Shown one piece after another: positions 1-55,993 of a stretch of 64,000 bases of DNA. The notes under the pieces were generated by a model, which saw only the letters and a list, made by a program, of their open reading frames with translations, ran no database searches and was not told the DNA's origin. The first letter of the stretch is position 1. Each line of letters begins with the position of its first letter. The position numbers and the translations under genes are program-made. The DNA comes from Diadema setosum (lineage: Eukaryota): the NCBI RefSeq assembly GCF_964275005.1, contig NC_092698.1, forward strand, positions 37,552,597-37,616,596. The letters are read 5' to 3'.

Positions 1-529
1 AGTCGAAAGAATTGAATGCGTCTTGCGCCCAACTGAAGTACTGATGCAATATTCATGACTTTCTACAAAATAAGATGCAACAAACGACATACTATGGTAT
101 TAAGAATAGGCCTGGTCTTTCTTTGCTTTCGAAGTTGTTCATCAACTGTGCCTGATTTCTTGACATCGACGATGTAAGGAATGATTCGACGCATGATATG
201 GCTGCCTAAATAGAGTTTTTGAAGTGATCGGCACGTGAAAAAAATTCAGTGCGACTGAGTAATCGACAGAGATTTACATTTATCAAAATCTGTAACTTGG
301 CATATTATGAATATCCTGAAATGTAATCGTTTGCTCATTTTGGATTCCCTGCTTGATCCTCTAAATAGACCACTAAGCACTCTAAAATGGTTTGTATTGC
401 GTGGATAAAGTTCTCAGAGCAGAAATTTAGCAGTAGAGCTAGTATGGGCAAGCGCCTTTTTATTACTCTAGAGAGAAAAAAGCAGACACACCACTCTTCA
501 AAATTGGGTTTAAATCACATTAGGATTAT

Positions 530-3420: not shown

Positions 3421-3700
3421 TATCATACATGATTACATATGCATTTGTATATAGAGATAAAGATACAGATATAGATATAGATATAGCTATAGTATAGATA
3501 TAGATATAGATATAGATATAGATATAGACATATAGATATAGATGTAGATATAGATATAGATATAGATATAGATATAGATATAGTATAGATATAGATATAG
3601 ATATAGACATATAGATATAGATGTAGATATAGATATAGATATAGATATAGATATAGATATAGTATAGATATAGATATAGATATAGATGTAGGTATAAATA
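3421..3700. repeat. (ATAGAT)n-type microsatellite of about 280 bp with a higher-order periodicity of about 90 bp.
   Basis: The repeat is directly visible. The minus-strand ORF 3239..3712 is an artefact of it. Confidence 0.9.
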
Positions 3701-3879
3701 TAGACTAGACAAATCTATTTATTTCTGTATTCAAGATATTGGACAGTAAAATGATGACGACATCGCAATGTATTCAACACGAGAATGGAATGGTCAATAG
3801 AGACTGTGGTAAGTCATAAAGGAGAAGTGATGGGCAATTTTCCCAATCGATTGGCTGTGTGTACAACGTGATTGGTTAG

Positions 3880-4200
3880 AGGAGAAACTGCTTGGGTGTC
3901 TGCTGTCGCTGTCGGCTGCGTAAATACGTTGTTTTTCCGTTAGTTCGCTGACCGTAGGGGGATTCGATAGCGTGCCTAGGCTCTCACTTTCAAGGCGGCG
4001 CAGAAGAACAATCAGCTTCTTTCACCGTCATTTCAGGGAGAAACGATCACGCAACATCCAGACAATGTCATGGAGTGACGTTGGCGGCGAGGTAATGACA
4101 GTCCTCGTGATCGGCGAAGTATTCAGTTTCCTCGTCGTTGCCTTCGTCTCTGTCTATCAGGCAAAGCTGCGACGTTCGTTTGGGTCCAGTCGTTGAAGAC
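3880..4200. promoter_or_regulatory. CpG-dense island in otherwise CpG-poor DNA. It may be an unmethylated promoter or first exon.
   Basis: There are many CG dinucleotides. It contains ATG (4065) ... GAG|GTAATG (donor at 4092), which could form a short first coding exon MSWSDVGGE. Confidence 0.2.
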
Positions 4201-7600: not shown

Positions 7601-7810
7601 AGAGCTTTAACGGCAAAGCGGCGGAAGGCCGATGTAAAATATTAAAGCTGACTAGAGTGTCATATACAATGCCATGTAGATCTACGGGATGTAGGAATAA
7701 TACAATATCATGTGTGTGTTTGTGTGTGTATGTGCGTGTGTTATGCTGCATGTGTGTTTGTTTCTAAATGCAGGCGTCTTGTATTGTAAGTACGAATGTG
7801 TAGTGAGTAT

Positions 7811-7811
7811 A

Positions 7812-7864
<53 letters not shown>
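7811..7864. repeat. Compound (TA)n(TG)n microsatellite. An imperfect TG-rich stretch sits upstream at 7710-7790.
   Basis: Directly visible. Confidence 0.9.
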
Positions 7865-16980: not shown

Positions 16981-17021
16981 AAAGCAAACCAAATGACGGA
17001 CAAGAAGAGGACGTACAAAAG
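16981..17021 (+). CDS. SCG3: SCG3-like exon, most 5' one found. Peptide (x)SKPNDGQEEDVQK. Starts in phase 2 and ends in phase 0.
   Basis: Acceptor ttttttttctcccctacag|AA and donor AAG|GTATAT. The phase is compatible with the next exon at 27231. The exon is short, so this call is weak. Confidence 0.3.
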
Positions 17022-20000
17022 GTATATTTCCTTTCAAATTTTGTTCAGTTCCTCCGAGAAGAAAGAGTAGACGCTGATATGGAAGTGATAGCAGAATTCA
17101 GATCGATAGACTTTTCTCAGAATAAGATTCTTTCTCTCAGATGGTCCATTATCTAAAATTCCTTTGCAGTGTCATCTTTGCTTTTCTCTCTTCATCTCGA
17201 ATACTCTTTCTGTCTTCTAAGTGTAGAATTATATCCTAGTTGGCACGTTTGGGGGAAAAAGAATGAAAAGAGCTATAGCGAGCTAAATTTGGCATTATCT
17301 TGTCCCTTTGTCTGTACTTGATAGGGCTCTGACGTAAAGGGAACGATCACGTGACTAACTCAATAGATACACTTAGTTACAAAACAAATTTAGCTTGATA
17401 CATTGTTCTTGTATATAAATCACACGATGATGAAGGGGTAATGATATGCATAATCTATGCTAATTAGTAAGGGTCTGTTCCTTGCTGTCCATAATGCGAT
17501 GCATTTGTTTGTGTCTGTAGCTATAACAAAAACAAAATGATAAATCGAATACTGAAGATTTTAGACTTAACAAGACAGGCCTACATTTATATTTTGTATT
17601 TAAGATATAATATTTTTAAGTGTGTACAATCTCGATGCCCACCTGTCACATGATTATTTGCGTAACCTTCAGAAGAAATGCTAAGGTGTTGATTTTATGT
17701 CACTGACCAAACACAAACGACACCGGAATAACACTGTGCACGGTATTTGTTACAGAAGATGAATGCATTCATATTGAATGTTAAGACTCTTTATTATTGC
17801 CTGCACTGGAATATTTCTCGTGGAGAAAGATAAAAATAAACATTTCCCTAGGATAGCATTGTTCATGACTTCAACAATTAATGTGGCTGAATAAACACCA
17901 CCCAGCAGCATCAATTGGCGGTCAAAATCAGGGAGAAAGAATCACTCAGGATGTGATTGAAAATCACTGCGAGCTCAGCCTCACGCAGTATGATAATAAC
18001 CCCACCCCAAGCTGCGCCTGTTCTCCACGGATTGCCATAGCAACGGGAGAACGCTGAAAGGAGATAGGACGAGCAGTTACTGATGGGAGAACTGAAGTGT
18101 ACTAGACTTGTAGGAGGAGCATTATCCGCAGTCTATAGCACAATTTCAATGTCACACGCTGTTTGCCCTTCACGTGCCTTCCACTGCAAATGCAGATTTC
18201 CCTCTTACATCAGTGAGAACATGGTCACATTTTTGTGCATGCGCACAAAGTTTGCAGAGCGTTGCACTTTGTTGTTGTATCTTATTGATTTGTTTATTCA
18301 CTTATTCAAGACAAGTTAAGAAAATACAACTTGTAGAAAAACAAACAACCACACGCCCGTCGAAACAGCGGATGAGAATACGTGTTAGTCACAGACAGCA
18401 TTTCTCGGGAAATAAATGGATGTTTTGTGTGCACAAAACAAAGCCATGATCAAGAAACAAAAACAAAAACATATCATTCAAAGCATACGTGGCGTTTCGA
18501 CTTCGATGTCTGGGTAGATGGTGACAACGCAGATTTATTAAATAAAGTGAATCAGACAATTCCCCCCCCCCCCCGAGAATCATCGACTCTCGACGCTCAA
18601 TGCCAAGGCTGCAAACGATCCGGATGTTCGACGAGGCTAATTCCTATTTATTCGTGTCTAAAAAAGGATATTTAGTGAATATTGTATACAGAAAATTGAA
18701 ATATTTACAAGTCGATGAGAGGCTTGAGAGGTGGTTATATCGGCCAATCTGCATAAGTGGTGGCGAGTAGTATCACTGCATTTCATTAAAGACGTGTGGA
18801 AATTTCATTGCTTTCTTATATTAGGGAATGATTTACTTAACGCTCGATCATCGATTTCGTCCACTTCTTCTCAATCCGTCGAAGCCAATTTGAACATGGT
18901 ATGGACCTGTACTTTGATATGAGTGCATTACATGTATTGTGTGTATACAGCTGTGGGCAAACATTGGTTGGTTAAACTCCACCATAAACAAACTAGCATC
19001 GAATAAGCAAACAAAAATGGAGAAGATTCAAAATGTTGGTTGTCCTTGGGTGTAAATCATCGGTTTCATTAATTACCGATCTCCTCGTTAAAGTAGGGTA
19101 GTTTGAATAGCAAGGTAACCACTAGTTCCATTATGTCATGAACTACCATCATCCGTTTCCATGGAAACGCGAGGCAACGGACGGATGGAAACCATGAGAA
19201 AGACCTGGTGACGGCACGTAGTCAGGAGAAGGCTCTTGGGTAATACAGAAATGCCTCGTTGAAGAGGGTTTGATGGAAAACGAAGACTATCTTACCATTC
19301 CAAGAGTACAGCTCATAACCACGACTTGATTTAATTGTATGTCTGTGTTGCTCATTTCATATTGTACCTCCGACGTATTCAGCAAGATGTTCCAACAAAA
19401 AACACACAGACACACATACATGTACATCACACACTCAAGAACATCACTCTCCCTGCTGCTTTTCTGTCTCATGTCACATTCAATTTCTTTTAAATCCAAT
19501 CTAAAGTCGATTTCTCCTAGCCACGTTCAGTCACCACTGGGGAGGAGAACGTGTCGCATCACCTTGAAGACATCATCTCTGACAAAGTTCAAAGTTCTTT
19601 TCTCCATTGACAGCCATTGTTCCATTTGCTCATCTCAAGTTTCCTCCTCTTTCTCCGGTGTCCCTCCATCTTCCTTTACGCCTCTAGCGTCGAACTCGAG
19701 TTGCCAAGTCCCCGCTGAGAATGCTATGCGTGATGATACAAACACCTGGAAAGAAAAAAAAAGAGTAAGATGCTAAAATTTCGTCCAATCATGAGAAAAA
19801 AATAGGGAAGAAAAGGAAGATATAGATGTAATGGCATGAAGAGGCTGAAGGGCGGTGTATGATTCCGGAATTTACCTTCGATCCAGTAAGCAGGAGAAAC
19901 GCGCGCAGGCAGACGTCACTGCGATGCGACGGCGGAAAGGGATAATTGCATTAACCTCCCTTTGTGAGTCCTGCTATCTCCAGAGGGTTCGGGTGTTTAA

Positions 20001-21284
20001 AAAGGGCAATCGAGCTCACAGCTCCAGGAGTGTGAAACACTCTGTCTATATACTCAGCAGCCTCATGACTCGCTAGCAGAAAATAGAATGGTAAAGGCAA
20101 CAGCGGTAATAAAGTTTGCGGAAACTGATAAATATCATAAGAGGTGACGCAAATGCCTTTGGTGAACAATTTATTTTGAACAGAACTTTTAACAAGAAAT
20201 CGATTAATGCAACGGCTTTGATGCAGGAATTGCCCTCATTTTAACTGCAATTTTTCACTTTCTTATCGCGTTGGGAAATTGTCATTCTAGATATACACAC
20301 CATCGACCATGGCATTTATATAGTTGCTCATCGTTACAGCAGCATAATATTCAGATGTACAACGAATTGAATAGCGACCAGCACCCGTAAAATTCGCTCA
20401 ATGTCTGACTATGGTCATGGCTGATTACATATTTCACGTTTGTTCTCTAGAACCACCAGCTTGACTGCAACAGTTCTATTTTAATTAAAGTATAGATTAA
20501 CATTGTTAAGTGCGGCTAAGAAAAATCAGTCTAGAGCGGAAATTTAAAAAAAAAAGTGTTCATTGTAACGAAATAAAGAGAGACTTGGACTTAGAGAGAG
20601 GAAGATGAAGATAAGGATGGAAGAAATAGGAGGGTGTAGTAATGATATATGTAGAGCGGTAACGGTTGTTACCACATGCATGACGTGGCAAATTCACTTA
20701 TCCCAGAGATGGCCATCGAAATTTAGAACTCATCCGCGAAGTTAGGGAGAGCTGGATGACATGTGGAGATAACACCACCGCTTTCGCCAAAATGCCACGA
20801 CCTTTATGCCGGCGACTCGGCGAGATAGATTGAGAGCACATTGCTTCAAGAATTCCAATTGCACCTTCTATTTCTGATATTTCCTCACTCGTCTCTTCCC
20901 CAGATAGCATACACTTCTCTGTCTCTTCAACTCACCATTAAATTTACATTAAGTCTCTTGGCTATTCTTTTTTTGTTTTTCTGTTTCATGAGTGGGTACA
21001 GCAACAGGTGTTTGAAGTCAATAATGTATAGGATAAAGGCGTGTGATTTAAGAAAATTAAATTGTTGGTACTTGAACTATACCCAAATACAAGAAAAGAT
21101 TGAAGACAAAGAGCGGAAAGATAGAGACATCAGAATACATAAAAAGAGGGGAGATTGAGATGAAGAGAGGCAGAAAAAGAGAAAACGAGAGAGATACTAT
21201 GTCGGGAGACCTTTCCGAGGTAACCTTGTAAAAAAAGTTGCAGGGAATTTGAGCTTAAACATGATTAATACATGTAAGAGAAAC

Positions 21285-21500
21285 ACTGACCAATCAGAAC
21301 GCAAAGCTGTCTAGCGATCATTGTGTCGGGTTTCAAATTGTTCCGCGGGGGCCAACCCAACAATTTCTGGTCGTCTGAAGTTATCTCCCCTGCGTGCACC
21401 TTTAACGTGATTGCCCGCGTAAAACGAGGTTAAAGAGAAATAATTTCGAGCGAATTGTCAGCATCTACCTGGAACGAATTTCCTAACGGGCCGTGTCAAA
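21285..21500. promoter_or_regulatory. CpG-dense segment with an NF-Y-type CCAAT box (tgaccaatcag, about 21289). A GC box (gggggcgg) lies at about 21783.
   Basis: The motifs are visible. No associated gene was identified. Confidence 0.15.
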
Positions 21501-24500
21501 ATTGTTCATCGGGGATCACAGGACACTGGAGTAAAGCAGTTACGTCAACATCGTAGACTTAATGTACATTCGCAAATGTGCATAGTAAAATATATGAAAC
21601 GAATAGATTCAAAGTGAGCTAAACCTCTCCACACGTACTTAAACAACTCTCCACGTGGATTTAGTTCGACTAATAAACCTGGACTTTCGGCCGCCGTTGC
21701 TGCTATCAAAGGCAATTTCTTCACTTGAGTCAGTCGTTAAATGTCAAGCGCTTATAGAGGGAAATATCTCACAGGAAATTGAGGGGGCGGTGGAATGAGG
21801 CAGGCTGGTCGCAGAATGACACTGCTCTTTCTTTACTTTCTAAACATGTTTGCATGACATTATCTCGCGGTGTTGATAATCGTTTGAGTCTTTTATGGGG
21901 GAGGGAAACTCGGTCTAAAACCCCTACTGAGGGCGTAAACGTGGAATACCTTGTAGTTATTATCGGAGAAATCATAACTATAGATAAGCGGGAAACAGTG
22001 TCACGGTCTAAATTCCAAAGTAAACGTTGCGTTATAACAGCTTCGCTCTTTGAATTCAACATAAAAAAAATAACCCACTCCCAATGTTTATGGTTACAAT
22101 TAGCTAGGACAAAGATATAGATTTGCTGCAAACAACTCGACAATTGATTAAACTTTTCTTTCATAATGTCCGTCATCTAGAGTACAAACTTCGCCGAACG
22201 CTTTGAAAAAAAAAATGACGCATGATATAACTTACAAAAAGTTGTATTTAATCACTAATCTCTGGACACAACTAGGCCTTTAAACATGAATATTATCAAT
22301 AATGGATTTGATTGACAAGTAATAAAAATAATTATATGTGCTGTTTGGAATCATTGGATAATATTTGACTCGAACTACACTTTAAGCATGTGTGTTTGTG
22401 TGTGTGTGTGTGTTACGAAAACTGTTATATCATTATATTTGACAAACTAGTTGTCAAAATATTTAATCTATATGAGGCTTCCTTATCAATCTCTTTATTG
22501 TCAGGACGCTTGTTACGTTTTTGCATCTCTCGTTTTAGTTACATATGTGTTTGTTTGTTTTTTTTTCAATATCTCGCAACTCTACTTCAACAGACACTAC
22601 TGTGTCTGTTCAAGGGACAAAAACGATTATCTGAGATTGCTTGGCCATACGTTTAATATAGGAATGTGTTATGATAGCAGGCAGGAGGTCATGGCGATAA
22701 TGCTGATATGAAAACGGTATATTTACTGTCGTCATGGTCTGAATCCACCGACAAATAATTAATTGTTCCTGTGATTAACGTTGATTAGAGGAGCTTCAGC
22801 GTCCCGTAGTCCCCCCGGCTCAATTTGTCAGCTTTCACTGGAGCACAGAAAATTGTCTTTCTAAGAGTTGGTTTCATAATTTGGCGCTTAGAGCTAAATG
22901 TCAGTGCTCCCGTAGAATGTTTTGCTTGTTTGCCGCTGAGCGCCATTATAAGTATTGCCGATATGCACTGCCGGGATGGTTCACGTGTACTCTTGGAATA
23001 TTGTCCGCGAGCGAGGCTAAGAACACATCAATTTTGGCGAAGTTATTAGAAAACAGGTCAGCGTCAATCCGTTGTGTGAATATACTGAACTCTCACCTCT
23101 GTATAGAAATGATATCATCGATGTGCCCTTTTATTATCATTTTTACGTTTTATTTCCGTCATGTGGTCTAAACATGATCTATAAACATCGCCTTTTCTGC
23201 GCGCCCGTTATTCATGGCATTGCTATGTATATATATATATACTTTTTTTTTTCGGAAACTGATGCTGACAACGAATATGGAGTAATAGCAATGCGACAAA
23301 ATGGCCGCAGGTATAGGGATAATGGTGGGTGTGGGATGAAGGGTGAAAAGCTTATGCAAGCAAAACTTATATACAATATCTAAAAGCTAATGAAGTACTC
23401 GGACGTCCATAATCTCAACAAATTTGATTCCTCTGTTGATGCACAGTATTGATAAAATACTGGATTACAGTATCAACAAGGAGCAAAGAAGTAATGGCTG
23501 TGGGGGCTTATTTGTTATCCCCGTTTTTCTACACCACCTGACTCAGCTTATGAAAACAGTCTAATTTCCATTCCAATCCACTTCAATCCACTGCACAGGG
23601 TTTTGGAGAGAGAAATCTGGAACTTCGATAATCAGCATTCACATAAAGTGGATTTTGCTCCCACTCCCAATTATGGCATATAGTGAAGAGAAAGAGCGGA
23701 GGTACACCGTGCACGTCTGTCTAAGTAGGCTCCGATGACACGCAGCCAGATAAGAGGCAGAAAAATCAGTCTCGAATCGAACTGCTGTGGGTTCCCTTGT
23801 CGATACCGGATCTCCCCGTTCCAGTCGTTCGGCATATTTTGGGTCGTTATCGGACAGACTTCTGCCCACGCTGAGGTGTAAGAGGATGGAACGTCGCCAG
23901 GCTTCTCAGACATAGTTACCCCACTCTACCTCTCAGCGATGCAAGAAAACATTTTACCCTCAATTCTCGTGATTGTTTTAAATTCAGCGCACCGATATTG
24001 AAGAATGCATCAACTTAGTTTGAATCCGAGCACCGAAAGTAAAAACTGAATTCTCTTCTCACAGGACTAGAGGTGTTTTTTTTTTTTGGGTATTCTTTAT
24101 TCTCTTTCTTTAATTTCACTTGTGCATTATTGATCCTGTACCCATCAATCTAAAACCATTCATCACAGATGTGAGACAGATTCGTCACATCTTTGGCTTT
24201 TCTCTCTTATCTTTGAATGCTTGTCTATTCGACTTCCAAACAAGCTATGTAGTATACAGGGCAATTACAGCAAATTCTATTTACCTCATTCACGACATAT
24301 TTTACTCATACGCTTGCTACTTGTATCCATTATGTTAAACAGGTACATTTGAAAAAAGACTTAACCAAACAAATCTGATTTGAGACTTTGAGACTCATGA
24401 GACTTTGAGACTCGTGATTTGTTCATTCATTCAGCAATAATTTTTGGGAAAAAAGTTTGACTTTCACATTTGGAGGATTCAAAGCATACTTCACGTAGAT

Positions 24501-27230
24501 GGAATCTATGAATACAAAATTTGCGAATATCCTATAAAAGTTCATAATGTAACCAAGTAATTATTAAAGTGAAAGAGTACAAAGGCAAAAAAAAAAAGCA
24601 ACTGAATGGAATGAATTCAGCGAGTGGATCTCATAATGTGACAGGCCTTGAAAGTGTTTCTAATAGCACCTTTCTCCAAGCCAAATCTCTACCAGACGAT
24701 CAGTCTTTCGTCACCATGCTCGACTTGGCTTTCCACACATCGTAAATCGAGCTCTTTATCTTAAGAAAAAAAATGCTTTATACTGTCCGATTAGCTGATC
24801 AAGAAGGAATATAAAATCAAAATTAATGTTTGGGTTGCCTGTTCCATCACCATGGGAACGCATTTTTATGATAACCATCATCAGAACTCCCTAATTCGTG
24901 GCGCTGTTTTCCCCACACTAACACTTTCTGTGCTGGTGACAAGAAATAAATTCACGAAGGAATCAAAAGATGGGAAAGATATAGATAAAAATCATAACAC
25001 AAAATTTGACGCTTCATTCCCATCAGTGCGCCCTAATTCTCTCGCATTGCATTATCTCAACCCATCCTGCTGGTTTTTTTTTTCCTCTCGATTGTTCGCA
25101 ACTGTCCACAAGTTGGGGTGGGCTTGAATGCTTCATTTACCCCCTAGAATGATGGGTTGCATGTCTGATGGATGCCCCTCCCTAAGCGAGCCAATGGGGT
25201 ATAGCTAATTATATGGGGCACGCAGGTTTTAAACCATCACCAACCTATCGCCTTCACTGAAAGCACGCATATCTAGGGCAACTTCGGCATACGTGCTCCT
25301 ATTAAATGTGATACATTTCAATGAAAGAAAGGCCGGTTATTTTCACCTCTCGTCTTCTGTTTCTTTCTCGTTTTCTTCTTCATCTTCCTCTTCTTCCCCC
25401 CCCCCCCCTTGTATTAATCATCATTCTTGCAAACACTGCCCAGGTTTTAATTTAACAATCACCACTGGGATGCAGTGCCCATCAAGTTGTACTGGATGGA
25501 TTGACAATGTTTTTACCAAAAATGTACAAGTAACATCGTATTTTTATTCTTTTCGTCTTTTTCGTCAACGGTAATATCCTTCACTATCCAAAGTGCTCTT
25601 GTGTATGCTTCTGAGAAGCACTTTCCCCGTAATCAAATGCATCTTAGCTGTTAAGTGTTTTCTGTTTCACTGAGACGAAGTCTTTTTAGTCTTTTTCTCA
25701 TAATAGTCTCGAACGATCTCCTTGTTGATTTGTTTCCTTGGAAAAAAAAAATATTCATCAGTGATACCTAACAGTTTGTAATTTCCTCCGAAACCACAAA
25801 ACCCTAGACTGAAAATTATTGATACTCCTGGATTGAATGTATAACAGTCATTATGATAATTCGCTTCACATGTGTGGGCGTCGGAAATAACTTCGAATAT
25901 GATCTTTATAATTCCTTTTGATTCGGTAGTTATCACTTCCGAAATTGGCCACGAGAAATTCTACAGTGCAACGCGAAGTTACCTTTACTGAAGATGATTG
26001 GAAACAGTGATGAAATTTGAAATTCAAAGCTTATTAGAATAAATATTGGTATATCACATGAATTGCAGCCATTAACGAAGGCTTCAAGAAATCAACATTA
26101 TTCATACAACGCGGGCCGTAAAACGTAAAGGTATCTTTAACGTCTTGCATAAAGTGACACCGATACTCAGTAATTAAAACATTCATTCCAAGCGAATCCA
26201 TTGTTTAATTGACGTCAAATACTTCTACTAACTTCGCCGGTAATATTTCTGTAAGTGTTGTGAGCTATTAGAAAAACACCCTTCAACAATGTACACTTTT
26301 ATAAGAAATAAAAAAGACCCTTGCAATATTCATACAAACTATATTTAGTGGTTGGGAAGCATCTATTAAACCACCAGCATTCTTTAATTTCTGTGGAAGT
26401 GGTGTAGGTTCAATCGTGTTCTCTGTTATGCCATAATACTCAACCAACGAGGCGAAAATCTTTAAAAGATCGATTTACCAGGAGGAGGTTATAGCGAAGA
26501 AGGAGCGTGCGCAAAAACACTCGCTTGGTTAATATTTGACGAGACACGTTTCAGGGCCGGGCGTTTGTTGGAGGTCAGTAAATGGTGGTTGGAGGAGCTT
26601 GTCCATCCAAAAAGACATCACCTAGGATCTCTGTTGTGTTTGTCTTCTTTCCTGAAGTATAGTGGGCGGGCGGATGCGGGCACAAGGGTCTGCGAATAGG
26701 CACTTGCAACACATCAGTTGCTCCCGCCCACTCTATGACCTTAAAACACTCTGCCGTCTCCATGACAACGATTATCCATCGTCTGCCCGATCACACTGAT
26801 AGGATGTTTGTGTTTCGCTTCGGACCCTTCTCGTGCACCTGCAAACTTCCATGAAGATTTTGAGCGTTAAGCACCGGACTGCATCATCGCAGCGGTATTT
26901 ATTCATCACTCATCACTGCAATCGATGCGTGATCCTCGTAATTGCTAAAAATACAAGTTCAAAACTACCTGCGAAAATTTATGGGGCAGCTTCCATCGAA
27001 ATACACAAACATTACAAAAGCAATACGACAGTCTTATTTATAGATAGAATAGATTTTACCATCTTACTTTTATCCGAAACCATCTGGCGGCCAAAATGCT
27101 ATCGTATGAAGATATGAAATGACCGGAAACTACATTCTTAAAATGTCTGCTTATTGTTTGTTTGCCTTTTGTAGCATTTTATGTGTTGCATTGCGAACTG
27201 ACTTATTCCTTTTATTTCTCTTTGTAACAG

Positions 27231-27285
27231 GTTGATTCAGCACTGACATTACAAGATGAGGACACACAAGGGAAACAAGTTCCAG
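27231..27285 (+). CDS. SCG3: SCG3-like exon. Peptide VDSALTLQDEDTQGKQVP, then 1 nt left over.
   Basis: Acceptor tttatttctctttgtaacag|G and donor CAG|GTGAGA. The 1-nt overhang G completes GAA with the first two bases of the next exon. Confidence 0.4.
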
Positions 27286-30200: not shown

Positions 30201-30334
30201 GTATTCACCGATATTACATTGGCTTCATAGACGAATTCTCATAAAGGGGCGTAGAATTGAAAATCGCATTTGGGTGCCAAAATCGACCGTATAGCGCTTT
30301 TTTGACGACTTTAGACTTTGGCTACAATTTAGCA

Positions 30335-30364
30335 CGCACACACAAGCACACACACACACACACA

Positions 30365-30412
<48 letters not shown>
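30335..30412. repeat. (CA)n microsatellite of about 78 bp. A second imperfect CA-rich stretch lies at 30655-30720.
   Basis: Directly visible. Confidence 0.9.
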
Positions 30413-31872
30413 TTCACCCTGCTTTCAAAGTGCTCCAAGATTAAAACTCGTGGTAGATACTTTTTTTTTTCTTTCTGTTTTTGCGTCTGACTGTCGATAT
30501 TGGTTGCCGTGGTGATCTCTGACGTAAATATGTGACGTGGGGACATTTTGAGGGGTTTCAGCGACCAGCAATGTTCTCTTTGTGTATAATCGATTTATTG
30601 ATGAGACATATAATGCCTGTGCGGACACGCGCACCAGCTCATACTCACAGCCAAACATGCACACACACACATACACACAGATACACACAGATCCACAGAC
30701 ATAACACTCACTCGCACACAACTGCTCATTAGCCATAGTTCTGGATTAGCTTTATCAACATTTCCTCAATTACCCCATTACGGTTAATAGCTAATGATGC
30801 ACTGAAGCTGTATTTTGTAAACATTTATGAGTTTTCAATATCTTACGTTTGAAATAGAAATAACAACCACTTACGAACCTCCGAGCCATGGACCCTTCTG
30901 TTCTTACGGGGTGCCGTATAGTAATGATTAGTACACTTACTATGTATTTTGTCAATGCCTATAGACAAAATTACATGTTACACTACACCGTTTTTGCATG
31001 TCAGTCAGTTGGCCTAAGTCAGCTTCGAAGTTTTCTAATATTAAGTGAAACCTTCAGTCCTTATTTCAATAATGTTTTGGATAGCATAATAGAAAAAAAA
31101 AAATAATGGCGATCAACCTTGAGATAATGTAGAATCAACAAACAAACGGGCAATTTTCCATAATGTTTACCTTTGCGATATTTCAACAATAAGGTAACGG
31201 ACATATAGCACCTGCTAACTGAAATCGACAAGAAACTCAGTTGGCCAAAACATAAAGAAGAAGAAAGAATCGCCCTTCAGGGCATCATTTTGAATGTAGG
31301 GCTGACACAAGAAGTAAGCCATGTGGGCGCGTGTGGGATCAGGCTGTAGATTGAGACGGCTTACCACAAGTCGCCTGGGGCGAGATCTTGCTGAGAAGCA
31401 CCTAATACCAGCAGGCGCGTGGGCGTACCTGTCCAACACTGAGTCCAACTGATGATGAGGAGCAGCGAACTGCGCCCCGTACAGCGCCACCGGTGATTGG
31501 ACCAGACGGCAATCAATGTACTGACAATGATCGGGGACCTTTCAGGGTCGCAATTGTGGTTTGTTTCTCAACATATCCAGGGATGGTGGAATCAATCTGT
31601 TTTCTTAGCAGGATCCTTCAGAGACTTGTTTACATTAATTGTCTCCTTCTGGCTTAGAAATGAAAAGACAAATAATAAGTACATTTTTATTTCTGTGCAA
31701 CACAAACGTAACTTACAGCTACATCACACTGACATGACTAGAAAGTGTGTCATGGCATTGATCAAGAGCATGATAATGAAAGTAAACTTGATCGCCTGTT
31801 CATTTGGAATAAGATATAATTACATGAATGTGAGATTGTGATATATACGACTTTATTGTCATTATCGTGCAG

Positions 31873-32016
31873 AAGATCGTCCAGGTGCTGACACGGAACC
31901 AGAAGAAGATGTGCCGGAAGGAGATGAAGACATGGGTCAAGAGGTCATCAATTACCAAGACATTCAAGTAGACCACAACAGTAAAGTGACGAGTGAAAAC
32001 GAAGGACAGAAAAAAG
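31873..32016 (+). CDS. SCG3: SCG3-like exon. Peptide (E)DRPGADTEPEEDVPEGDEDMGQEVINYQDIQVDHNSKVTSENEGQKK.
   Basis: Acceptor cattatcgtgcag|AA and donor AAG|GTTAGA. It starts in phase 2 and ends in phase 1, consistent with both neighbours. The content is acidic and there is no stop. Confidence 0.5.
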
Positions 32017-33406
32017 GTTAGAATAAACAAAATTTTTACTTCTCTTGGGATTCACAGAGTAGGCCTACATTAATATTGCTCTGCATGAGAAGCAAATAAG
32101 AACCTTTAGACAATAGAGCAATATTGTTTTGTTTTATTTACTTCAACTACATATAAAACATTTGTTTTCTAATGTACCGAATGAGACCACATATTACAGG
32201 AAATTATAAAACAAATATCACAGGTTGATAACTCGTAAGAGTATATGCATACACGGTGGAATAACGACATCTGTGAAGAATTTGTGATACGACAGATTGT
32301 CATTAACTTATTTTACTCTCGAGGTGTGCATAAACTAATGTTGCCGATTTTTTTTTTATGTAAATAAGAAAGCAGGTTATTTTCCTCGGAGACTTTCTGG
32401 GTTAACCAATCCCCTGAAACATTTGGTAAGATTCTCGAATAACAAATATAATCACCCGTGATTGAGTTGAACAACTAACTTTAGCCGCTGCTTCACGGTA
32501 TCGGCCTGGCGACGTATAAGAGATCCATTTTGGTAGAGCGGCGCTCTCGCCCACAAGCAAAAATTAGGTTTCGCGCAGACGACGAGTTGGCGCCTACCAT
32601 GAATACTAGTATTTGACGGGTCTGTTCAAGCACGTGACTCTCATTGCACCATCCACGTGACTTCCCTTTCCCATTCTGAATGCTACTGGCCATGTTATGA
32701 GTCTTTTACTTCAGTACCACACCTTTTTGTTTCACTTTCGAGAATGCGCGTTAAATGTAATCAGATAAATTAGAAGCGCACGGACTTAAACGCATTCTCA
32801 TGGTTCACTTTGTACACAGTGAAGACACGCGTACACTTTTCTTTTTCATATGGATTCAACTAAAAGAGAACATGTGAACAGAGTGGACAAAGGTATATTG
32901 CTATTGTAGACAGATAGTGACGCAGTGATGAAGAGCTGAATAGCGTGGAATGAGAGACACTGTTGACCTTCAGTTAGTGGGCTGATGAAGAAAGAAAGAA
33001 AAAAATCATCGGATGTGGTAAACAAATTTGCCGCTTCACTAAAACTTCGATTTGCGTCTGACTATACGCCGCGACTCAAATATTTTGATTTATTTTCATG
33101 ACCTTTTGAATCTTCAGTGAATAGAAGGACATATGATAGACAGCAACGATATAGCAACAAATAACACACAGTACTCACATAACTAACCATTGCTAACCTT
33201 GGCTAATTGCGTCTTGACGGCACACAGCGATTTTTTTTTTCTATCCTACACATGTTGTCCTTTCATGTAATTTCAGGGAGCCATTTTTGTTGCCAATTTG
33301 ATGTACGTAAACAATGTACAGAAATTAAAGATAATCGGCTAAAAGCATAAATAAGACAATCCAGCACAGCAATGATTTTGTATTATTTACATCCATTGTG
33401 CTTCAG

Positions 33407-33723
33407 TAACAGAAAACATTGAAGCTGGCGAGAAGGAGCTCGATGACACGGCACTGGACATCGCAGAAGAACAAACATTGACAGATGATGGTGATGAGGA
33501 GGAGGGGGTCGAGGAGGAGGAGGAGGAGGAAGAGGAAGAGTTAAATGAAGGAATTGGGGAAGAAGATACAGAAGAGGAATTCCAATACATGCTCACACCA
33601 TCAGCTGCCCGCGAACTCATGCTAGAGCTGCAAGATCCCGTCGAAGTGGCGAAGTTCGTGGTCGAAACCGACGATGCGGCGGGCTTCCTTCGAGCTTTAA
33701 GATTACTTCTCCACGATGGCTAC
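33407..33723 (+). CDS. SCG3: SCG3-like exon. Peptide VTENIEAGEKELDDTALDIAEEQTLTDDGDEEEGVEEEEEEEEEELNEGIGEEDTEEEFQYMLTPSAARELMLELQDPVEVAKFVVETDDAAGFLRALRLLLHDGY.
   Basis: The ORF track entry 33478..33747 carries the same frame. Acceptor ttgtgcttcag|TA, with an alternative acceptor 6 nt downstream at 33412. Donor TAC|GTAAGT. The motif FLRALRLLLHDGY followed by ISESQAY in the next exon resembles vertebrate SgIII FDKIVSKLLNLGLITESQAH (from memory). Confidence 0.75.
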
Positions 33724-33924
33724 GTAAGTGATGCCAACGTCTTGTAAACGCGACCAACATCGGGCCTATCAGAATTAATGGACTAAAAACTCATAACTGT
33801 AGAACTCTTTGAGTAAAAATCTTCAAATTGCGATCGTAGATACGCAAGAAAAAGATGTTAGAGTCTAATAATGTTTTAACCATAACCAGTTCTCGTTAAC
33901 TACAGTCAAACCTGTCTATAGCAT

Positions 33925-34100
33925 CCACTCAAAGGGGACGAAAATTAGTGGCCGTTATAGACAGGTGGCCGCTATAGACAGGTGACCGCCGTAGACAGGT
34001 TCGTTAACATGCCTATTCTCTCGGAGGGAATTGTTTCTAGTGTCCATATAAGGCAGGTGGTCACTATAGACAGGTGGTCGCTAATCTGCTCTGATGGTCT
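33925..34100. repeat. Minisatellite of about 18-19 bp units (GGTGRCCGCTATAGACAGGT) with about 5 copies, inside the SCG3-like intron.
   Basis: Directly visible tandem copies. Confidence 0.7.
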
Positions 34101-34378
34101 ATTAGATATATCATGAAACGCCATAAAGGCTTCACCCACGGTCATTAGGCCTTACAGATCAGGAAAAACAAGGTCGGGATGAAACAGAGGTGGGTGGATT
34201 TCATAACACATTCATTACTCAACTTTGTGTGTACACTCTGTGACGAGCAGGACATGGGAGGATCTTGCATGCCAAAAAACTCGATATATGTCGGCAAGTT
34301 GTCCCATGAGCAGCGGGGGCGTGTTAGCCGACATACGGGTCGAGATTTCCACTCAATGCCGCCCTAACATATTACACG

Positions 34379-34452
34379 TTTTTTGTTTTGTTTTGTTTTT
34401 TTATTTGTTTTGTTTTGTTTTGGGTTTTTTTGTTTGTTTTTTTTCATCAGAG
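34379..34452. repeat. (GTTTT)n-like T-rich microsatellite.
   Basis: Directly visible. Confidence 0.85.
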
Positions 34453-34957
34453 AGCTGCTCGGGGTTGGGGCTATTAAAATCTTTAGTCAGTATTAAGCTC
34501 CACACACAAACAACCCTACAAGCGTTAGAATTTCATTCTTGTGTAACTCATCTCTTTACAGTCATGTGATCCTATCTCCTCAAGCCATTAAGGCTTTTAC
34601 GAGACACCTTTTCTTTCACTTTACTGCACGTCTCTTTTCTTGTTTTTTTACCTGATTTATCACCGTTTTGTACGATGACCTTTAAAGTCACCCCTATATT
34701 GTATATTACGTGTGAATTATGCTTCATTTCATTTTTTTAGATTCTGTATATCGTAAAAGTTAAAAGAAATAATAGAGAGTTTTATGCTCTTAGCCAGGCT
34801 CTCAGTCATAAGTTACAACACTTTTTTTTTTACACTTGACTGACTTTTTATGGGGAGAGGGACGAATACCATTCACCATAGTGATATTTCTAGTTCGTAT
34901 TATGTACAATAATTCACCTGGTGTACATGCTCAATTTGAAATTATTTGTATTAAGTT

Positions 34958-34999
<42 letters not shown>

Positions 35000-35000
35000 T
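34958..35000. repeat. (GT)n microsatellite.
   Basis: Directly visible. Confidence 0.9.
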
Positions 35001-35379
35001 TCAACTATTCCCTAATGTGCTTCCTTAAGTTGATTGGAGAGGCCCAAGGGCCATAGTGATTTTGGTTGCTTTATAACCCGGCAACTTAGGGAAGAGCACC
35101 AGGGAAAGCCTGACATCTTGCATCCTTGTATTTTGCTTGTTTTGTTTGTTTATCTTTTATCACTTGTATTGTCTTGCAAATGCTGAACAAATAATAATAA
35201 TAACCACACACACACACACGTACACACAACCACACACAAATAACACCATTAGGCCTATACCTTCACCTTATTGTCTGTCTGTTTTATGTATGCATGTGTG
35301 TGCTTTGTTACTATGCCCGATGTTGGGTAATCCTTTCTTATGCCAAAGTTTTAATGTATTTCTGTGTTGATTCTTACAG

Positions 35380-35526
35380 ATAAGCGAGTCACAAGCATAC
35401 GAACTGAAAGACGCCGTGGCAGCACAGCTGAGAAATCTATTGATGCTACAACAAGTCGAACTATCGAGGGCGCTCTTTGAGACGTACCAACCTCAAATGG
35501 AAGAAGCAAACCCGGACATTGCCCTG
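35380..35526 (+). CDS. SCG3: SCG3-like exon. Peptide ISESQAYELKDAVAAQLRNLLMLQQVELSRALFETYQPQMEEANPDIAL.
   Basis: Acceptor tgttgattcttacag|ATA and donor CTG|GTAAGT. Phase is 0 at both ends, and the other two frames are closed. It resembles vertebrate SgIII ITESQAHTLEDEVAEVLQKLISKEA (from memory). Confidence 0.8.
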
Positions 35527-36190
35527 GTAAGTTACCAGATTGAACTATTTGATATAAACCAAATTTATCCTCACACAGTTTTGGTTTGAGGTCTGTATCC
35601 GATGAGGAGGGGTACTTGTATTGAAGAGAGCCGATAAAATAGACTTGTACATGTTGAAGTATGCAATTACTGGTGATAAGTAACAGAGAGAGAGAATAAA
35701 GAGAGTATAGGAGAGGAATTAGTGAGAGGAGACTCTACTAAAGTTAGGACTTTGGAGAATTAACTTCAATTTGAATATCCAAGAACCTTGAAGAGTCCAG
35801 ACCATGATTAAGAGGAATTGTCTACGTAAAGGGTAGACTAGGGGGACTGTTAACAACATTGCAAGAGACATTCAGCCGCTAACGAACACAAATTACACCC
35901 TAAGGGGATAAACATGGAGATGTAATTATTCGAACGTCTCTCCTGCTTGTGAGTGATTACAATCTAATTTCAATACAACGTTGACCAGAGAAAATAACAG
36001 CCAACAAGAAAATCTAGATGAAAATGAGGGACCTCAAGTGACAAGGAAAACGAACAAACAAGACGTGTTATGTGTCGAACTTTTACTGGAGGTATTCTGG
36101 GCTCCTATTCAAAGTGCAATTAGGCCACATTCGGACATTTTTAATGAATGTTTACCAGTCACGGTGTTTGTCTCTTATTGGTTACCTCAG

Positions 36191-36326
36191 GAGGAATTGC
36201 TCTTTGATCCTGAGCCTCAGCCCATCGACTACTACGACTATGGCAACATGCTGAATCAGGAGGACGCCGCTTACGGCAGCTCACAGGTCAACCTCTATGA
36301 AGCATACCAAGAAGCTCTGGAAGAAG
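36191..36326 (+). CDS. SCG3: SCG3-like exon. Peptide EELLFDPEPQPIDYYDYGNMLNQEDAAYGSSQVNLYEAYQEALEE, then 1 nt left over.
   Basis: Acceptor ttattggttacctcag|GAG and donor GAAG|GTAATT. This is the in-frame portion of track ORF 35981..36475. Confidence 0.75.
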
Positions 36327-36565
36327 GTAATTTTGTTCTTTTGTTTGTTATCTTCTGTACGTATGCATGTTTGTTGGTTTATTTGTTTGTTCATTCGTTT
36401 CGGGTTAAATATCCCGTTGGGTTGATTGTATTTTTGCTTGTTTGTCTTTCTAGCACAATGATGTTAGGACCCTAATTTGGAATAAAAAAACGTTAATTTC
36501 TTTCATTAATTCTGGAGTAATAACATGCGTACACTGTTCGGTAAGGATACTTCGTGAAGGTATAC

Positions 36566-36710
36566 ATTCCGTTATTCCAAAGGTTCGTTATTCCGAAGGT
36601 TTGCCAATCCGAAAACGAAATAAGGTTCCGAATGTTCGTCAGTAGAAACTTTTTTTTTCATTTTTGGCTTAACGAACCTTCGGAATAACGAACATTACCC
36701 TTTTCGTTCA
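36566..36710 (+). repeat. Short copy of the same GTTCGTTATTCCGAAGG repeat family. It has one unit plus an inverted terminal core and lies in the SCG3-like intron between the exons at 36326 and 37306.
   Basis: Forward cores lie at about 36570-36610. The inverted core sits at about 36672-36695. Orientation is the same as the 60955 copy. Confidence 0.55.
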
Positions 36711-37305
36711 ACTATCGATCTTTATCATATTATTTCGGATCCCACATGATTAACCTTCCGTGATATTGAGAGATTATTGATATCTATTCTAATTCTTTTA
36801 CTCATGCCTAAGTTAATTCCTTTCAGTTAGTACATACATCATTGCCATGAAAGGTTTACTGTTCTACTACACTGACTCAGCCTGATTAATAGACGGCCTC
36901 CTACACATACTCGTCAAAATTCCCCCGGTAGATTCAATTCAGGTCATTTGCACATGAATGTAGTTCAGGTAGATAGATTTGACTGATTATTGCGTTTCCT
37001 TTCGTAGTGTACGTTCAAAGATTTTAAAGGGAGCAAATTGCATGTCACATTTCAGCATGCTGATGTAAGACGCGCGCATACGCACAATAATGTGCAGACA
37101 GATACTTAATCATAAGACAGACTAAATACATGTAATGTAATATCTAATCCTTTCGTTTTTGCTCCTTCTATCTCTCCCCTCATTCTCTTTTAGCTTTTTC
37201 CTTTCTCTTTCTTCCATTTCTCCTTTTCACAATCATTTGTGTCACGGTCTCTGCCCTTCTAAATGCACTTTCTAAATATCTTCATTTTGTCATGTCATTC
37301 TACAG

Positions 37306-37398
37306 AAAGCTCCCAAGCGCTCGCACAGATAGCGGAAATATTGGCTCAGCGGATTGCCAAGGGAGAAATTTCACCGGAAGAAGGCGCCAAGATTATGA
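37306..37398 (+). CDS. SCG3: SCG3-like exon. Peptide (E)SSQALAQIAEILAQRIAKGEISPEEGAKIM.
   Basis: A long polypyrimidine tract runs from 37140 to 37300, followed by acceptor cattctacag|AA. Donor TGA|GTAAGT. The motif GEISPEEGAKIM resembles vertebrate SgIII GTISPEEGVSYL (from memory). Confidence 0.75.
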
Positions 37399-38336
37399 GT
37401 AAGTTTCAAATAAAAGCTAATTGTCAACTATTAGGTTGTTGATTCCTTCTCTGCTGCGTCTTTCATTGTAAATTCGCACTTTTGTTTTTCGCTAATCTTG
37501 TAGGAAATCACCAGTTTTGTTACCAAAATTTTGATTGTCTTAATAATGGATACAAAGATAAATGTGTGCCAACATTCCCTTCTGAACTTTAATATTTGAA
37601 CAAAGAATCATTAGCTACTAAGGTTGTGTAGTTTTCGTCCTCGTTTAGGCAAATCTCTCGCACCTTTGCTTTTGCCCCTCGTCTTTTTCTAACATAATCC
37701 TCTTTGCGCATTTTATTCATAGCTCATTTCCTTCACCTTAATGCGTATCTTTAAAAGATCTCTCCCGCCCACTCCGTTCTCCTTTTCACACCGAGTATTG
37801 ATTAGGCACCCGAGAGGCGCGAGTGGAATATGAGAACCCGGCGGCGATCCATTCAATACCCCCGCCCATCCGTCACTTTTATTATTACCCTCTCAATCAG
37901 GCGTCTGATCTCTGGTAGCGCCACTTCTAATTTGTGTGGGACAGGGATATTTGTAACGTTTTTGAGGGGACTATTTTTGCATGTCTTCCTGGAGACAATT
38001 GGGCAAGAGGGGGCGGTATCCCACACCCCCAGAATCGTGTGTGTGTGTGTGTGTGTTTAATTTTAGCAGATGCTATTAGAACCACATCGATTCCAGTGGG
38101 CTGACGTTTCCATGAAAATCAAAAAAGGGTGTATTTTGTCCACCATTGAAGACCTGACTGATCTAATTTCAAACGATTATTGTTGACTTTCAGATAGATT
38201 TTAGATGGGCTAAAGAGATAATTCCGTCAGTGGGTGTGTCATGTCTTACATTGTCTGCGAGATTGTCCCACATATTCACATTTCTAAAAAACACAAACAT
38301 ATTATTTTGATGAATTTGTTCTGCCCTCCTTCCTAG

Positions 38337-38759
38337 GCAAGGTGGTTCAACTTCTCCCAAACAGCTACTGGGAGGGGAGTGAGCAGACCATGAGTTCCGA
38401 AGGAATGCCGAGCGAGTTCCTCAACGGCGAGGAGAATGGTGTCAGCGTCGGCCTCTCATCTCAGGCTAGCGAACAGGATGACGACGTCAAACAAGACCAA
38501 TTCGATGACGACGACGAAGCTGAGGAGGAGGAGGAAGATGAGGAGGAGGACGACGATGATGAAGACACCAAGCCTGTGATTGAAGAGAACTTTGAGGAGG
38601 AGTTGTTGGAGGCAGGTCCAGACGGAGTGGTAAAGGAGATCGAAGAAGAAGACGATAACGGGCAGGAAGACGCCGCCGAGCTCGAGGAAGAGGCAGAGAA
38701 TCTAGCTGAAGAATTACAAGACGAACTCAAGGAGGAGGGCGGCAAGATGGAGAAAGGAG
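38337..38759 (+). CDS. SCG3: SCG3-like exon, hyper-acidic. Peptide (S)KVVQLLPNSYWEGSEQTMSSEGMPSEFLNGEENGVSVGLSSQASEQDDDVKQDQFDDDDEAEEEEEDEEEDDDDEDTKPVIEENFEEELLEAGPDGVVKEIEEEDDNGQEDAAELEEEAENLAEELQDELKEEGGKMEKGG.
   Basis: The track ORF 38342..38827 carries the same frame. Acceptor ctccttcctag|GC and donor GAG|GTATGC. The 141-codon body contains no stop, and the phase is consistent with both neighbouring exons. Confidence 0.8.
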
Positions 38760-39091
38760 GTATGCTGCCGATTTCTTTCTTGATTAATACCAATATGCAT
38801 TCGAATTTATGTCTTTGTAGGTTATGAACATATTTAAAACATATTTTCTTTAACAGGCTTGGAATCTGGGAGTAACATTGTGCAAGGAAAAATAAAACTG
38901 TAGCATGGTGGAATTTGTTTGTAAAAAGTTTTCTTCAAATATTTTCGAGTAAAACTCATATGAACCAAAAGATTGTATGTGTGTCTGTGTGTGTACGCGC
39001 GCGTGTGTGTATGTGCGAGTGGTTATATTCATTTTCTAACCCAATGGCGTTGCATTTTTCTACTATGTTTTTTGTTTGTTTGTTTTTTTAG

Positions 39092-39211
39092 AATCACTCA
39101 AGATCCAGAGACCTGGCGGCATGGCTGTTGTGAATGTTGGACCATCCAATGACGTCATCGATGACAAAGTCAGACAAGACTGGAAAGACATGTCATTACT
39201 CCTAGACAAAA
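39092..39211 (+). CDS. SCG3: SCG3-like exon. Peptide (E)SLKIQRPGGMAVVNVGPSNDVIDDKVRQDWKDMSLLLDK.
   Basis: Acceptor gtttgtttgtttttttag|AA and donor AAA|GTAAGA. Phase is consistent with both neighbouring exons. Confidence 0.7.
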
Positions 39212-39544
39212 GTAAGATATTTGCTTGATATCCATTGTTTTAAAGAGACACACTAATGATCGTAATTAAAAACATTTAAAATGAGATGAAATTGTTGGTT
39301 ATTAGGGGTATTTACTTATCTGTAAAAAAAAAACTCTACTCATTACCAGTGATAGATTTTGCAGCTGTATTTTGGTCGGCTAGTTTTCATGGTTGCCCTT
39401 TGTTATCTGTTTCCTGCGAATTCCATTATTTCAATTTTACAGAGTTTTGTTTTCGTGCGTAATGCGTATTTCTGTATTTCTGCAACTGAGTTGAGTACAT
39501 TACATTGTTAATTCCTTTTATTCCCCCTCTTCTACAATTACTAG

Positions 39545-39645
39545 GTATTCCGGAAGATGTGCTACGAAGTCTCGGCTTGACCTTTGACCTACCGAAGGGC
39601 GGGAAAGAGACGGCGAAGGGATCACTCATGGACAGGAGCGAGTAG
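39545..39645 (+). CDS. SCG3: SCG3-like terminal coding exon. Peptide (S)IPEDVLRSLGLTFDLPKGGKETAKGSLMDRSE, then a TAG stop.
   Basis: Acceptor ctcttctacaattactag|GT. The frame inherited from the previous exon reads through to an in-frame TAG at 39643-39645. Confidence 0.7.
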
Positions 39646-55743: not shown

Positions 55744-55993
55744 TGATTGCAGAAAATTTCAAGAGTAATTCGAAGCCACGGTGAACCCTTTAGTATTGAT
55801 TTGCGCGTTCTTTGAAACGCATTTGTTGATTGACTATTTGGCACCATTCATTTCGTTTTCAAATGTTATACTTTCGCAATATGTCAAATATTACTTTTGT
55901 AATTTGATTACAGAAAATTTCAAGAGTAATTCCAAGCCACGGTCAACCCTTGTAGTTTTCGATTTGTACACTCTTTGAAACGTATTTGTTGAT
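55744..55993 (+). repeat. Two direct repeats of about 86 bp with about 90 % identity. Their starts are about 162 bp apart, which suggests a local tandem duplication.
   Basis: gattgcagaaaatttcaagagtaattcgaagccacggtgaaccc at 55744 matches gattacagaaaatttcaagagtaattccaagccacggtcaaccc at 55906. Confidence 0.6.

Follow-up and report, generated by a model that had tools for sequence, protein, structure and literature searches.

Granins apart from 7B2 are usually treated as a vertebrate family. Does a sea urchin carry a gene for secretogranin III (SgIII, encoded by SCG3)? The question is raised by a 64,000-nt stretch of the Diadema setosum genome (contig NC_092698.1, positions 37,552,597 to 37,616,596), hereafter called the window, in which an original prediction made from the letters alone had placed a multi-exon SgIII-like granin gene on the plus strand. 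Sequence similarity and gene structure together make it very likely that this gene is the echinoid SCG3/SgIII orthologue. By orthology, its product most likely acts as vertebrate SgIII does in dense-core granules. Gene structure, which is independent of sequence scores, is regarded as the strongest line for the SCG3 identity.

Gene model and intron positions

The gene lies on the plus strand within 16981-39645 and was rebuilt from stop-free segments, AG/GT positions and phases. It has ten exons of 41 to 423 nt in the window, summing to 1577 nt. Given one base from an upstream exon, they correspond to 525 codons and a TAG at 39643-45. The nine introns are 10209, 4587, 1390, 1656, 664, 979, 938, 332 and 333 nt long. 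All 18 splice dinucleotides are canonical: the acceptors have AG after a pyrimidine-rich tract, the donors have GT (mostly GTAAGT- or GTGAGA-like), and successive exons always agree in phase. Wherever there was a choice of junctions, the correct phase belonged to the strongest splice site. The originally predicted ten exons, introns of 0.3 to 10 kb, frame of about 525 codons and TAG at 39643 were all reproduced from the raw sequence, as were the AG acceptors behind polypyrimidine tracts, the GT donors and the compatible overhangs at every junction.

The model is directly supported by the gene of another sea urchin, Lytechinus variegatus. Its protein was mapped exactly onto its own locus (L002), giving 11 coding exons, and each of the nine junctions in the window matches an L. 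variegatus junction in both residue and phase. A tblastn search of the window with the L. variegatus protein matched the last eight exons (gene exons 4-11), with the same borders. The reading frame in the window opens inside a codon (phase 1), without an ATG or a signal peptide. The window exons are exons 2-11 of an 11-exon gene, and the model is 5'-incomplete. The exons are listed below, with slashes marking exon-intron borders.

16981..17021, plus strand: coding exon 2, 41 nt, phase 1 to 0, encoding (x)SKPNDGQEEDVQK, with a strong AG acceptor and GT donor
27231..27285, plus strand: coding exon 3, 55 nt, phase 0 to 1, encoding VDSALTLQDEDTQGKQVP, with a good acceptor and a CAG/GTGAGA donor
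31873..32016, plus strand: coding exon 4, 144 nt, phase 1 to 1, with the conserved GQEVINYQDIQVDHNSKVTSE motif, matched by tblastn with the L. variegatus protein
33407..33723, plus strand: coding exon 5, 317 nt, phase 1 to 0, an acidic run followed by the first half of the SgIII core motif
35380..35526, plus strand: coding exon 6, 147 nt, phase 0 to 0, the second half of the core motif, aligning with SCG3
36191..36326, plus strand: coding exon 7, 136 nt, phase 0 to 1, a poorly conserved linker with DYYDYGNML
37306..37398, plus strand: coding exon 8, 93 nt, phase 1 to 1, the ISPEEG motif
38337..38759, plus strand: coding exon 9, 423 nt, phase 1 to 1, hyper-acidic and disordered with Asp/Glu runs, borders as in L. 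variegatus exon 9
39092..39211, plus strand: coding exon 10, 120 nt, phase 1 to 1, encoding ESLKIQRPGGMAVVNVGPSNDVIDDKVRQDWKDMSLLLDK, length and phases as in L. variegatus exon 10
39545..39645, plus strand: coding exon 11 (last coding exon), 101 nt, encoding SIPEDVLRSLGLTFDLPKGGKETAKGSLMDRSE, with TAG at 39643-45 and the acceptor phase of L. variegatus

The two short exons at the 5' side are supported by comparison with L. variegatus. Exon 2 is the best match to the L. variegatus sequence LKEDRQNDETDVQK in 31.9 kb scanned on both strands. The two exons have in common the end ...GTACAAAAG/GT and the phases 1 to 0, and a weak collinear match to exon 2 is present at the start of a metagenome contig from a related species (L001, 8.7 kb). 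Exon 3 has a homologue in L. variegatus exon 3 (VENVVASQNREVDDTQLKQDQ): both start with GTY GAW, contain the DTQxKQ motif and have identical phases. Exon 4 shows blastn identity of 86% to L. variegatus and 79% to L001. In exon 7, which the tblastn match spans at 36197-36325, the GAAG/GTAATT donor beats a weak in-frame alternative, and the junction is the same as in L. variegatus.

Other models were rejected. The alternative junctions 36334/37329, 39191/39570 and 38342 have weaker splice sites, and L. variegatus uses the chosen junctions. A start at the internal ATG of exon 2 (MTDKKRTYK...) combined with a hydrophobic "exon" at 27175-27230 does not fit the L. variegatus gene, which fixes another frame. 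This "exon" was rejected because its peptide is the translated polypyrimidine tract of the exon 3 acceptor.

Intron maps were made for SCG3 of Hyaena (protein P0008 on locus L003) and for a protein of the hemichordate Saccoglossus kowalevskii (locus L004). The 12 coding exons mapped in Hyaena agree with human SCG3 as described (PMC11746947). The intron phases are as follows.

Sea urchin (L. variegatus): 1,0,1,1,0,0,1,1,1,1
Saccoglossus: 1,0,1,1,0,0,1,1,1,1
Hyaena SCG3: 1,0,1,1,0,0,1,1,1,1,1

Introns 2-10 of the window gene have the phases 0,1,1,0,0,1,1,1,1. The chance of matching ten phases is on the order of 1e-5 (about 2e-5), as a rough estimate from typical phase frequencies.

Two introns are located at identical aligned positions. 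The phase-0 intron follows LLHDGY/ in the urchin, LIEDGL/ISEEE in Saccoglossus and LLNLGL/ in the mammal; the end of exon 5 in the window therefore has the same position and phase as the end of mammalian SCG3 exon 5 (...SKLLNLGL/). The phase-1 intron is found at PEEGAKIM/S in the urchin, PEEGEGYL/D in Saccoglossus and PEEGVSYL/E in the mammal. This is the exon 8 donor, which lies five residues past the ISPEEG Gly, as it does in mammalian SCG3 and Saccoglossus. The exon sizes are also alike (143/150/117 nt in the mammal vs 149-317/102-147/93-102 nt in ambulacrarians). Exon 6, which has the same phases in the window gene as in mammalian SCG3, is 147 nt long in the former and 150 nt in the latter, and 102 nt long in Saccoglossus. 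An additional phase-1 intron in the mammal splits the single acidic exon 9 of ambulacrarians, and the two mammalian parts (84 + 132 = 216 nt) compare with 222 nt in Saccoglossus.

Sequence similarity and ambulacrarian relatives

The homology to SCG3 is directly supported by sequence as well as by gene structure. The reference set was obtained with human SCG3 as the query; it consisted of 587 matches named secretogranin-3 and carrying the Pfam domain PF15467 (SGIII). This domain was at the top of 24,736 Pfam families for the window protein (16.8 bits, E 0.0043, on the appropriate part of the profile, positions 136-185). In BLASTP against chicken SCG3 (P0101), the core motif is identical at 19 of 48 positions (40%, E 4e-6). 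The hhalign comparison gave 77% probability when the single window sequence was compared with SCG3, and 93.9% (E 1.6e-7, 51 columns) when a profile of five ambulacrarian species was compared with a profile of ten tetrapod species. A greedier alignment along the same path paired the ISPEEG motif with the SCG3 sequence GTI[ST]PEEGVSYL at high posterior probability.

The core motif and the ISPEEG motif occur in the same order in the window protein and in SCG3 of Hyaena and chicken. The originally proposed matches of the SgIII motifs held against these two retrieved sequences. None of 1000 shuffles of the whole protein reached the observed score (z about 6), and 1 of 5000 shuffles did so in the comparison of exon 8 with its mammalian counterpart exon.

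Asp and Glu make up 30.5% of the window protein, in agreement with the predicted hyper-acidic product with Asp/Glu runs, and Lys and Arg make up 6.9%. The calculated isoelectric point is about 4.05. Since the protein has no Cys, the disulphide loop of chromogranin A and chromogranin B (CgA/CgB) cannot form. The Pfam Granin family (CgA/CgB/SgII-type) gave no match at E <= 1 for the window protein. The predicted product is SgIII specifically, not a CgA/CgB-type granin. Of the original label, "SgIII-like granin", the SgIII part is borne out by BLASTP (E 4e-6), hhalign and the intron phases; the Granin family has no match, and the SGIII match is sub-threshold. The proposed database check of the joined protein had a similarly divided outcome, with a BLASTP match to chicken SCG3, an HMMER match to a Saccoglossus "secretogranin 3-like" protein and Pfam SGIII below 27 bits.

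An AlphaFold run with a shallow five-sequence alignment predicted a mostly disordered protein. The predicted local distance difference test (pLDDT) score is below 50 for 340 of 524 residues, and the predicted template modelling (pTM) score is 0.23. Confident helices are seen only at residues 141-222 and 270-320, which correspond to the two conserved motifs; a weaker helix is at about 420-444. The helices of exon 5 have pLDDT values of 77-88, and the exon 9 region is below 50 except for one helix. The PDB contains no solved structure of any relative.

Membership in an ambulacrarian family is directly supported. An exhaustive HMMER search with the 218-residue core of the window protein returned nine matches at E <= 1e-3. 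They include the following proteins.

Lytechinus pictus (P0122, XP_054749989.2): 76% core identity, E 4e-87, named "probable serine/threonine-protein kinase kinX"
L. variegatus (P0130, XP_041459495.1): member of the P0122 cluster, named "probable serine/threonine-protein kinase kinX"
Holothuria leucospilota (P0123, P0133): 53% core identity, E 2e-40, hypothetical protein
Anneissia japonica, a crinoid (P0125, P0144): 36% core identity, E 3.5e-8, uncharacterized protein
Saccoglossus kowalevskii, a hemichordate (P0127, XP_002731170.1, A0A1C9TA52): 31% core identity, E 2.8e-6

The Saccoglossus protein is named "uncharacterized protein LOC100373605" at NCBI, and "Secretogranin 3-like protein" or "secretogranin-3-like" in UniProt/nr. 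Word-index protein searches, with the window core or the family alignment as the query, gave no more than fragments covering one exon each, taken from assemblies of metagenomes or reads (P0001, P0145). These searches are uninformative on absence because they missed annotated orthologues with 76% identity and even members of their own query alignment.

Purifying selection on the gene is directly supported by the comparison with L. variegatus. The nonsynonymous value (pN) is 0.14 in the core and 0.27 elsewhere, far below the synonymous value (pS) of 0.86, which is saturated. In tblastx and blastn comparisons with L001, which carries the fragment P0001, conservation is observed at three collinear blocks only. 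They correspond to the window exons at 31.9, 33.6 and 35.4 kb, and the introns are unalignable. Apart from a tentative element in intron 1 (494-527), only exons are conserved against L001 and L. variegatus. There are anomalies in L001. At 4072-4225 (the contig is labelled with 2x coverage), a frame change is present inside the equivalent of exon 4, the equivalent of exon 2 has an ambiguous donor, and no counterpart of exon 3 was found in this contig. These anomalies are likely to be assembly errors, or possibly a real structural difference.

Signal peptides are present in the orthologues of L. variegatus, Holothuria, Anneissia and Saccoglossus, and are encoded on a separate exon 1 in the mapped genes (L. 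variegatus and Saccoglossus). The model of L. pictus has a non-signal N-terminus (MTNNWAIRNQ...), unlike L. variegatus. The Holothuria orthologue is uninterrupted on a 2.76-kb contig (L005) assembled from a sequencing run, indicating that this contig is a spliced mRNA and that the orthologue is expressed.

Rival readings, the first exon and the rest of the window

Several observations weigh against the SgIII assignment. The SGIII score of 16.8 bits lies below the curated gathering cut-off of 27 bits, an operational threshold for a profile built on a mainly vertebrate seed, and none of the other ambulacrarian proteins matched SGIII in the Pfam scan. Vertebrate SCG3 is not among the nine matches of the exhaustive search at E <= 1e-3; the SCG3 link therefore depends on profile comparison and gene structure. 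The convincing alignment to SCG3 covers about 80 of about 525 residues. The exons for the C-terminus, the part that binds CPE in vertebrates, show no significant similarity between the urchin and Saccoglossus. The last exon of Saccoglossus shows a weak likeness to the mammalian one (YVDTGKLSDKD vs YVEKGILDKEE, p about 0.06), and the last exon of the urchin resembles neither, with the phase of the last intron common to all. CgA, the best-known partner of SgIII, is not known outside vertebrates, and part of the vertebrate mechanism cannot apply; thus the conserved function of SgIII is unlikely to be CgA binding as such. Dibasic pairs number one (KK) in the window protein, zero or one in other ambulacrarians and seven in Hyaena SCG3. 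Seven dibasic pairs are likewise described for human SCG3 as a descriptive feature (PMC11746947). Dibasic pairs are a descriptive feature of vertebrates rather than a requirement for sorting.

Such observations could be explained by a lineage-specific acidic secreted protein of ambulacrarians, whose likeness to SgIII comes from convergence of short motifs or from composition, not from common descent. The sub-threshold SGIII score, the lack of SGIII matches in the other members, the absence of vertebrate SCG3 at E <= 1e-3, a confident alignment of only about 50 plus about 25 residues and a C-terminus that is not detectably conserved are all in its favour. This explanation is nevertheless considered unlikely, because it leaves to coincidence ten identical intron phases (chance about 2e-5 by the rough estimate) and two introns at exactly matching positions inside the aligned motifs. 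The collinear motifs, the similar exon sizes, the hhalign probability of 93.9% and the shuffle tests also speak for common descent.

Taken at face value, the NCBI and UniRef names of XP_054749989.2 and XP_041459495.1 would make the locus a gene for a kinX-like serine/threonine protein kinase. Neither the window protein nor the two Lytechinus proteins (P0122 and P0130) have a kinase domain or any other catalytic domain in Pfam scans, the window protein is mostly disordered and acidic, and the orthologues carry secretory signal peptides. We consider the kinase reading effectively refuted. The name "kinX" most likely arose as an artefact, from low-complexity similarity between acidic sequences.

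The absence of exon 1 bears on both the SgIII assignment, against which it counts, and the integrity of the gene. Exon 1 did not turn up in the 16,980 nt upstream of 16981 when an ATG with a hydrophobic stretch and a phase-1 donor was sought, and a scan for similarity to the L. variegatus signal peptide gave no credible exon 1 either. Three candidates were rejected: 16708-16774, whose junction would create TAA; 4488-4551, a (CT)n tract resembling an acceptor; and 94-173, which has the wrong phase. Exon 1 of L. variegatus, like that of Saccoglossus, comprises exactly 27 codons of signal peptide and one further base, ending in phase 1. Intron 1 is 16.1 kb long in L. variegatus and 7.1 kb in Saccoglossus. 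One segment near the window edge is similar to L. variegatus.

494..527, plus strand: tentative conserved non-coding element in intron 1, 34 nt, 85% identical to L. variegatus L002 4162-4195, E 0.005

The matching L. variegatus segment is collinear and located 1.1 kb downstream of exon 1, which suggests that exon 1 sits a few hundred bases past the 5' edge of the window. From the 16.1-kb intron 1 of L. variegatus and this collinear match, the absence of exon 1 is expected as an effect of the window boundary.

It is very unlikely that the locus is a decayed, non-functional copy (pseudogene) of an urchin SgIII-like gene with exon 1 lost by truncation, as might be supposed from the 17 kb upstream inside the window, where neither an ATG nor a signal-peptide exon was found. 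The 525-codon frame is intact, the splice dinucleotides are canonical in 18 of 18 cases, and pN is far below pS against L. variegatus. The length of the L. variegatus intron 1 (16.1 kb) and the collinear match in intron 1 put exon 1 beyond the window edge.

The rest of the window is eukaryotic in character, with a GC content of 35-43% and many microsatellites. Rfam and tRNA scans of the window gave no matches, and the long open reading frames outside the gene are low-complexity or repeat-like. The original statement that the SgIII gene is the only convincing protein-coding gene in the 64 kb is consistent with these scans, which were non-exhaustive. The GC content is about 0.40 across the gene and falls to about 0.35 right after its 3' end (~40000-64000), where no convincing coding segment was seen. 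No canonical poly(A) signal variant other than ATTAAA at 40575 is present within 2.8 kb of the TAG.

Repeats are found inside and outside the gene. A small interspersed repeat family with 80-83% identity is present in a gene intron (36570-36628) and about 21 kb downstream (60962-61045 and 61096-61178). The gene-free downstream region contains a direct repeat pair (55741-55830 / 55902-55993, 87% identical, 160 nt apart) and an inverted repeat pair (51653-51733 / 52177-52257, 84% identical, about 450 nt apart). Microsatellites of (TA)/(TATC)-like, (CT)n and (CA/TG)n types are located at 3240-3720, 4512-4545, 7690-7860, 30330-30420 and 34960-35010. The microsatellites of the window yield long spurious open reading frames rich in Y/I/L or C/V/H/T.

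Proposed function and comparison with known granins

According to a review (PMC11746947), vertebrate SgIII is an acidic protein of secretory granules that binds cholesterol through its N-terminal region, CgA through its central region and CPE through its C-terminal region. It helps cargo aggregates to be sorted into dense-core granules and retained there. By orthology, granule localisation, Ca2+ binding, a sorting/adaptor role and neuroendocrine expression would most likely apply to the urchin protein. It would enter the regulated secretory pathway via a signal peptide, as in its orthologues. Its segments rich in Asp and Glu would bind Ca2+ and, where pH is low and Ca2+ high, aggregate together with peptide cargo. 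Specific contacts with the granule membrane or with partner proteins would be made by the two conserved helical islands, which would thereby retain cargo in the regulated secretory pathway. The likely site of action would be the dense-core secretory granules of neurons and endocrine-type cells.

SCGIII was reported as restricted to vertebrates in a survey of 2005 (PMC1215479). Our literature search found no paper on SgIII in echinoderms or hemichordates, and 7B2/SecV was the sole granin discussed in sea urchins. The database label of the Saccoglossus secretogranin 3-like protein and the use of amphioxus Scg3 as a marker are already known. The echinoderm SgIII orthologues are unnamed or misnamed "kinX" in databases. 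The orthologues of the urchin, the sea cucumber and the crinoid, together with the intron positions of mammalian SCG3, indicate that the SgIII family extends to Ambulacraria. It is probable that SgIII is an ancient, deuterostome-wide granule protein whose 11-exon architecture and two helical motifs predate vertebrates and CgA, whose ancestral job was CgA-independent (such as tethering acidic cargo aggregates to the granule membrane), and whose echinoderm orthologues went unrecognised as "uncharacterized" or "kinX".

The interest of these findings is mainly evolutionary, in that an ancient SgIII core is defined and annotation is corrected, including the misleading "kinX" names in databases. The roughly 80 residues kept since the deuterostome ancestor would be the best candidates for essential interaction surfaces. 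If the proposal is true, the role of the conserved granin core could be studied in urchin pluteus larvae, an experimentally tractable system. In practical terms the benefit is modest, in that the gene becomes a candidate marker of, and knock-down target in, the neurosecretory cells of sea-urchin larvae, alongside Sp-SecV.

Compared with vertebrate SCG3 (Hyaena P0008, chicken P0101 and human Q8WXD2), the urchin protein is likewise predicted to be secreted, acidic, free of Cys and about 470-525 aa long. The core and PEEG motifs are in the same order, and the intron-phase series and two exact intron positions are in common. The vertebrate gene has 12 coding exons against 11 in the urchin gene, and about 15% of the residues align confidently. 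Asp and Glu reach 30% in the urchin protein vs 19%, basic residues are half as frequent, and dibasic pairs number one vs seven. Exon 9 of the urchin is a single long acidic exon, whereas it is split in the mammal by the extra phase-1 intron, and similarity to the C-terminal CPE-binding region was not detected in the urchin protein.

The Saccoglossus protein is a direct HMMER match (E 2.8e-6) with 11 exons, the same phases and a signal peptide on exon 1, and it has the NYxD..VD, core and SPEEG motifs in common with the window protein. It differs in being only 24-31% identical, shorter (419 aa) and less acidic, and its C-terminal exon is nearer to the vertebrate one. The Lytechinus proteins XP_041459495.1 and XP_054749989.2 are direct orthologues with 65% identity overall and 76% in the core, and every exon border is common. 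Differences are seen in the lengths of some exons (41/35, 55/64, 317/269 and 423/324 nt, window vs Lytechinus), and synonymous sites are saturated.

Two further systems are comparable in their biology. Secretogranin V / 7B2 (Sp-SecV) is a granin used as a neuroendocrine marker in sea urchins (PMC6209648). It belongs to an unrelated family (PC2 chaperone), and the window protein has no sequence similarity or Pfam match to it; the likeness is that Sp-SecV is a granule-associated "extended granin" of echinoderm neurosecretory cells. Amphioxus Scg3 is a marker of secretory vesicles in endocrine-like gut cells of Branchiostoma that express Sst-like and PACAP/GCG (PMC11661445). Compared by description, this gene of an invertebrate deuterostome, regarded as SCG3 and expressed in peptide-hormone cells, shows the biology that would be expected for the urchin gene.

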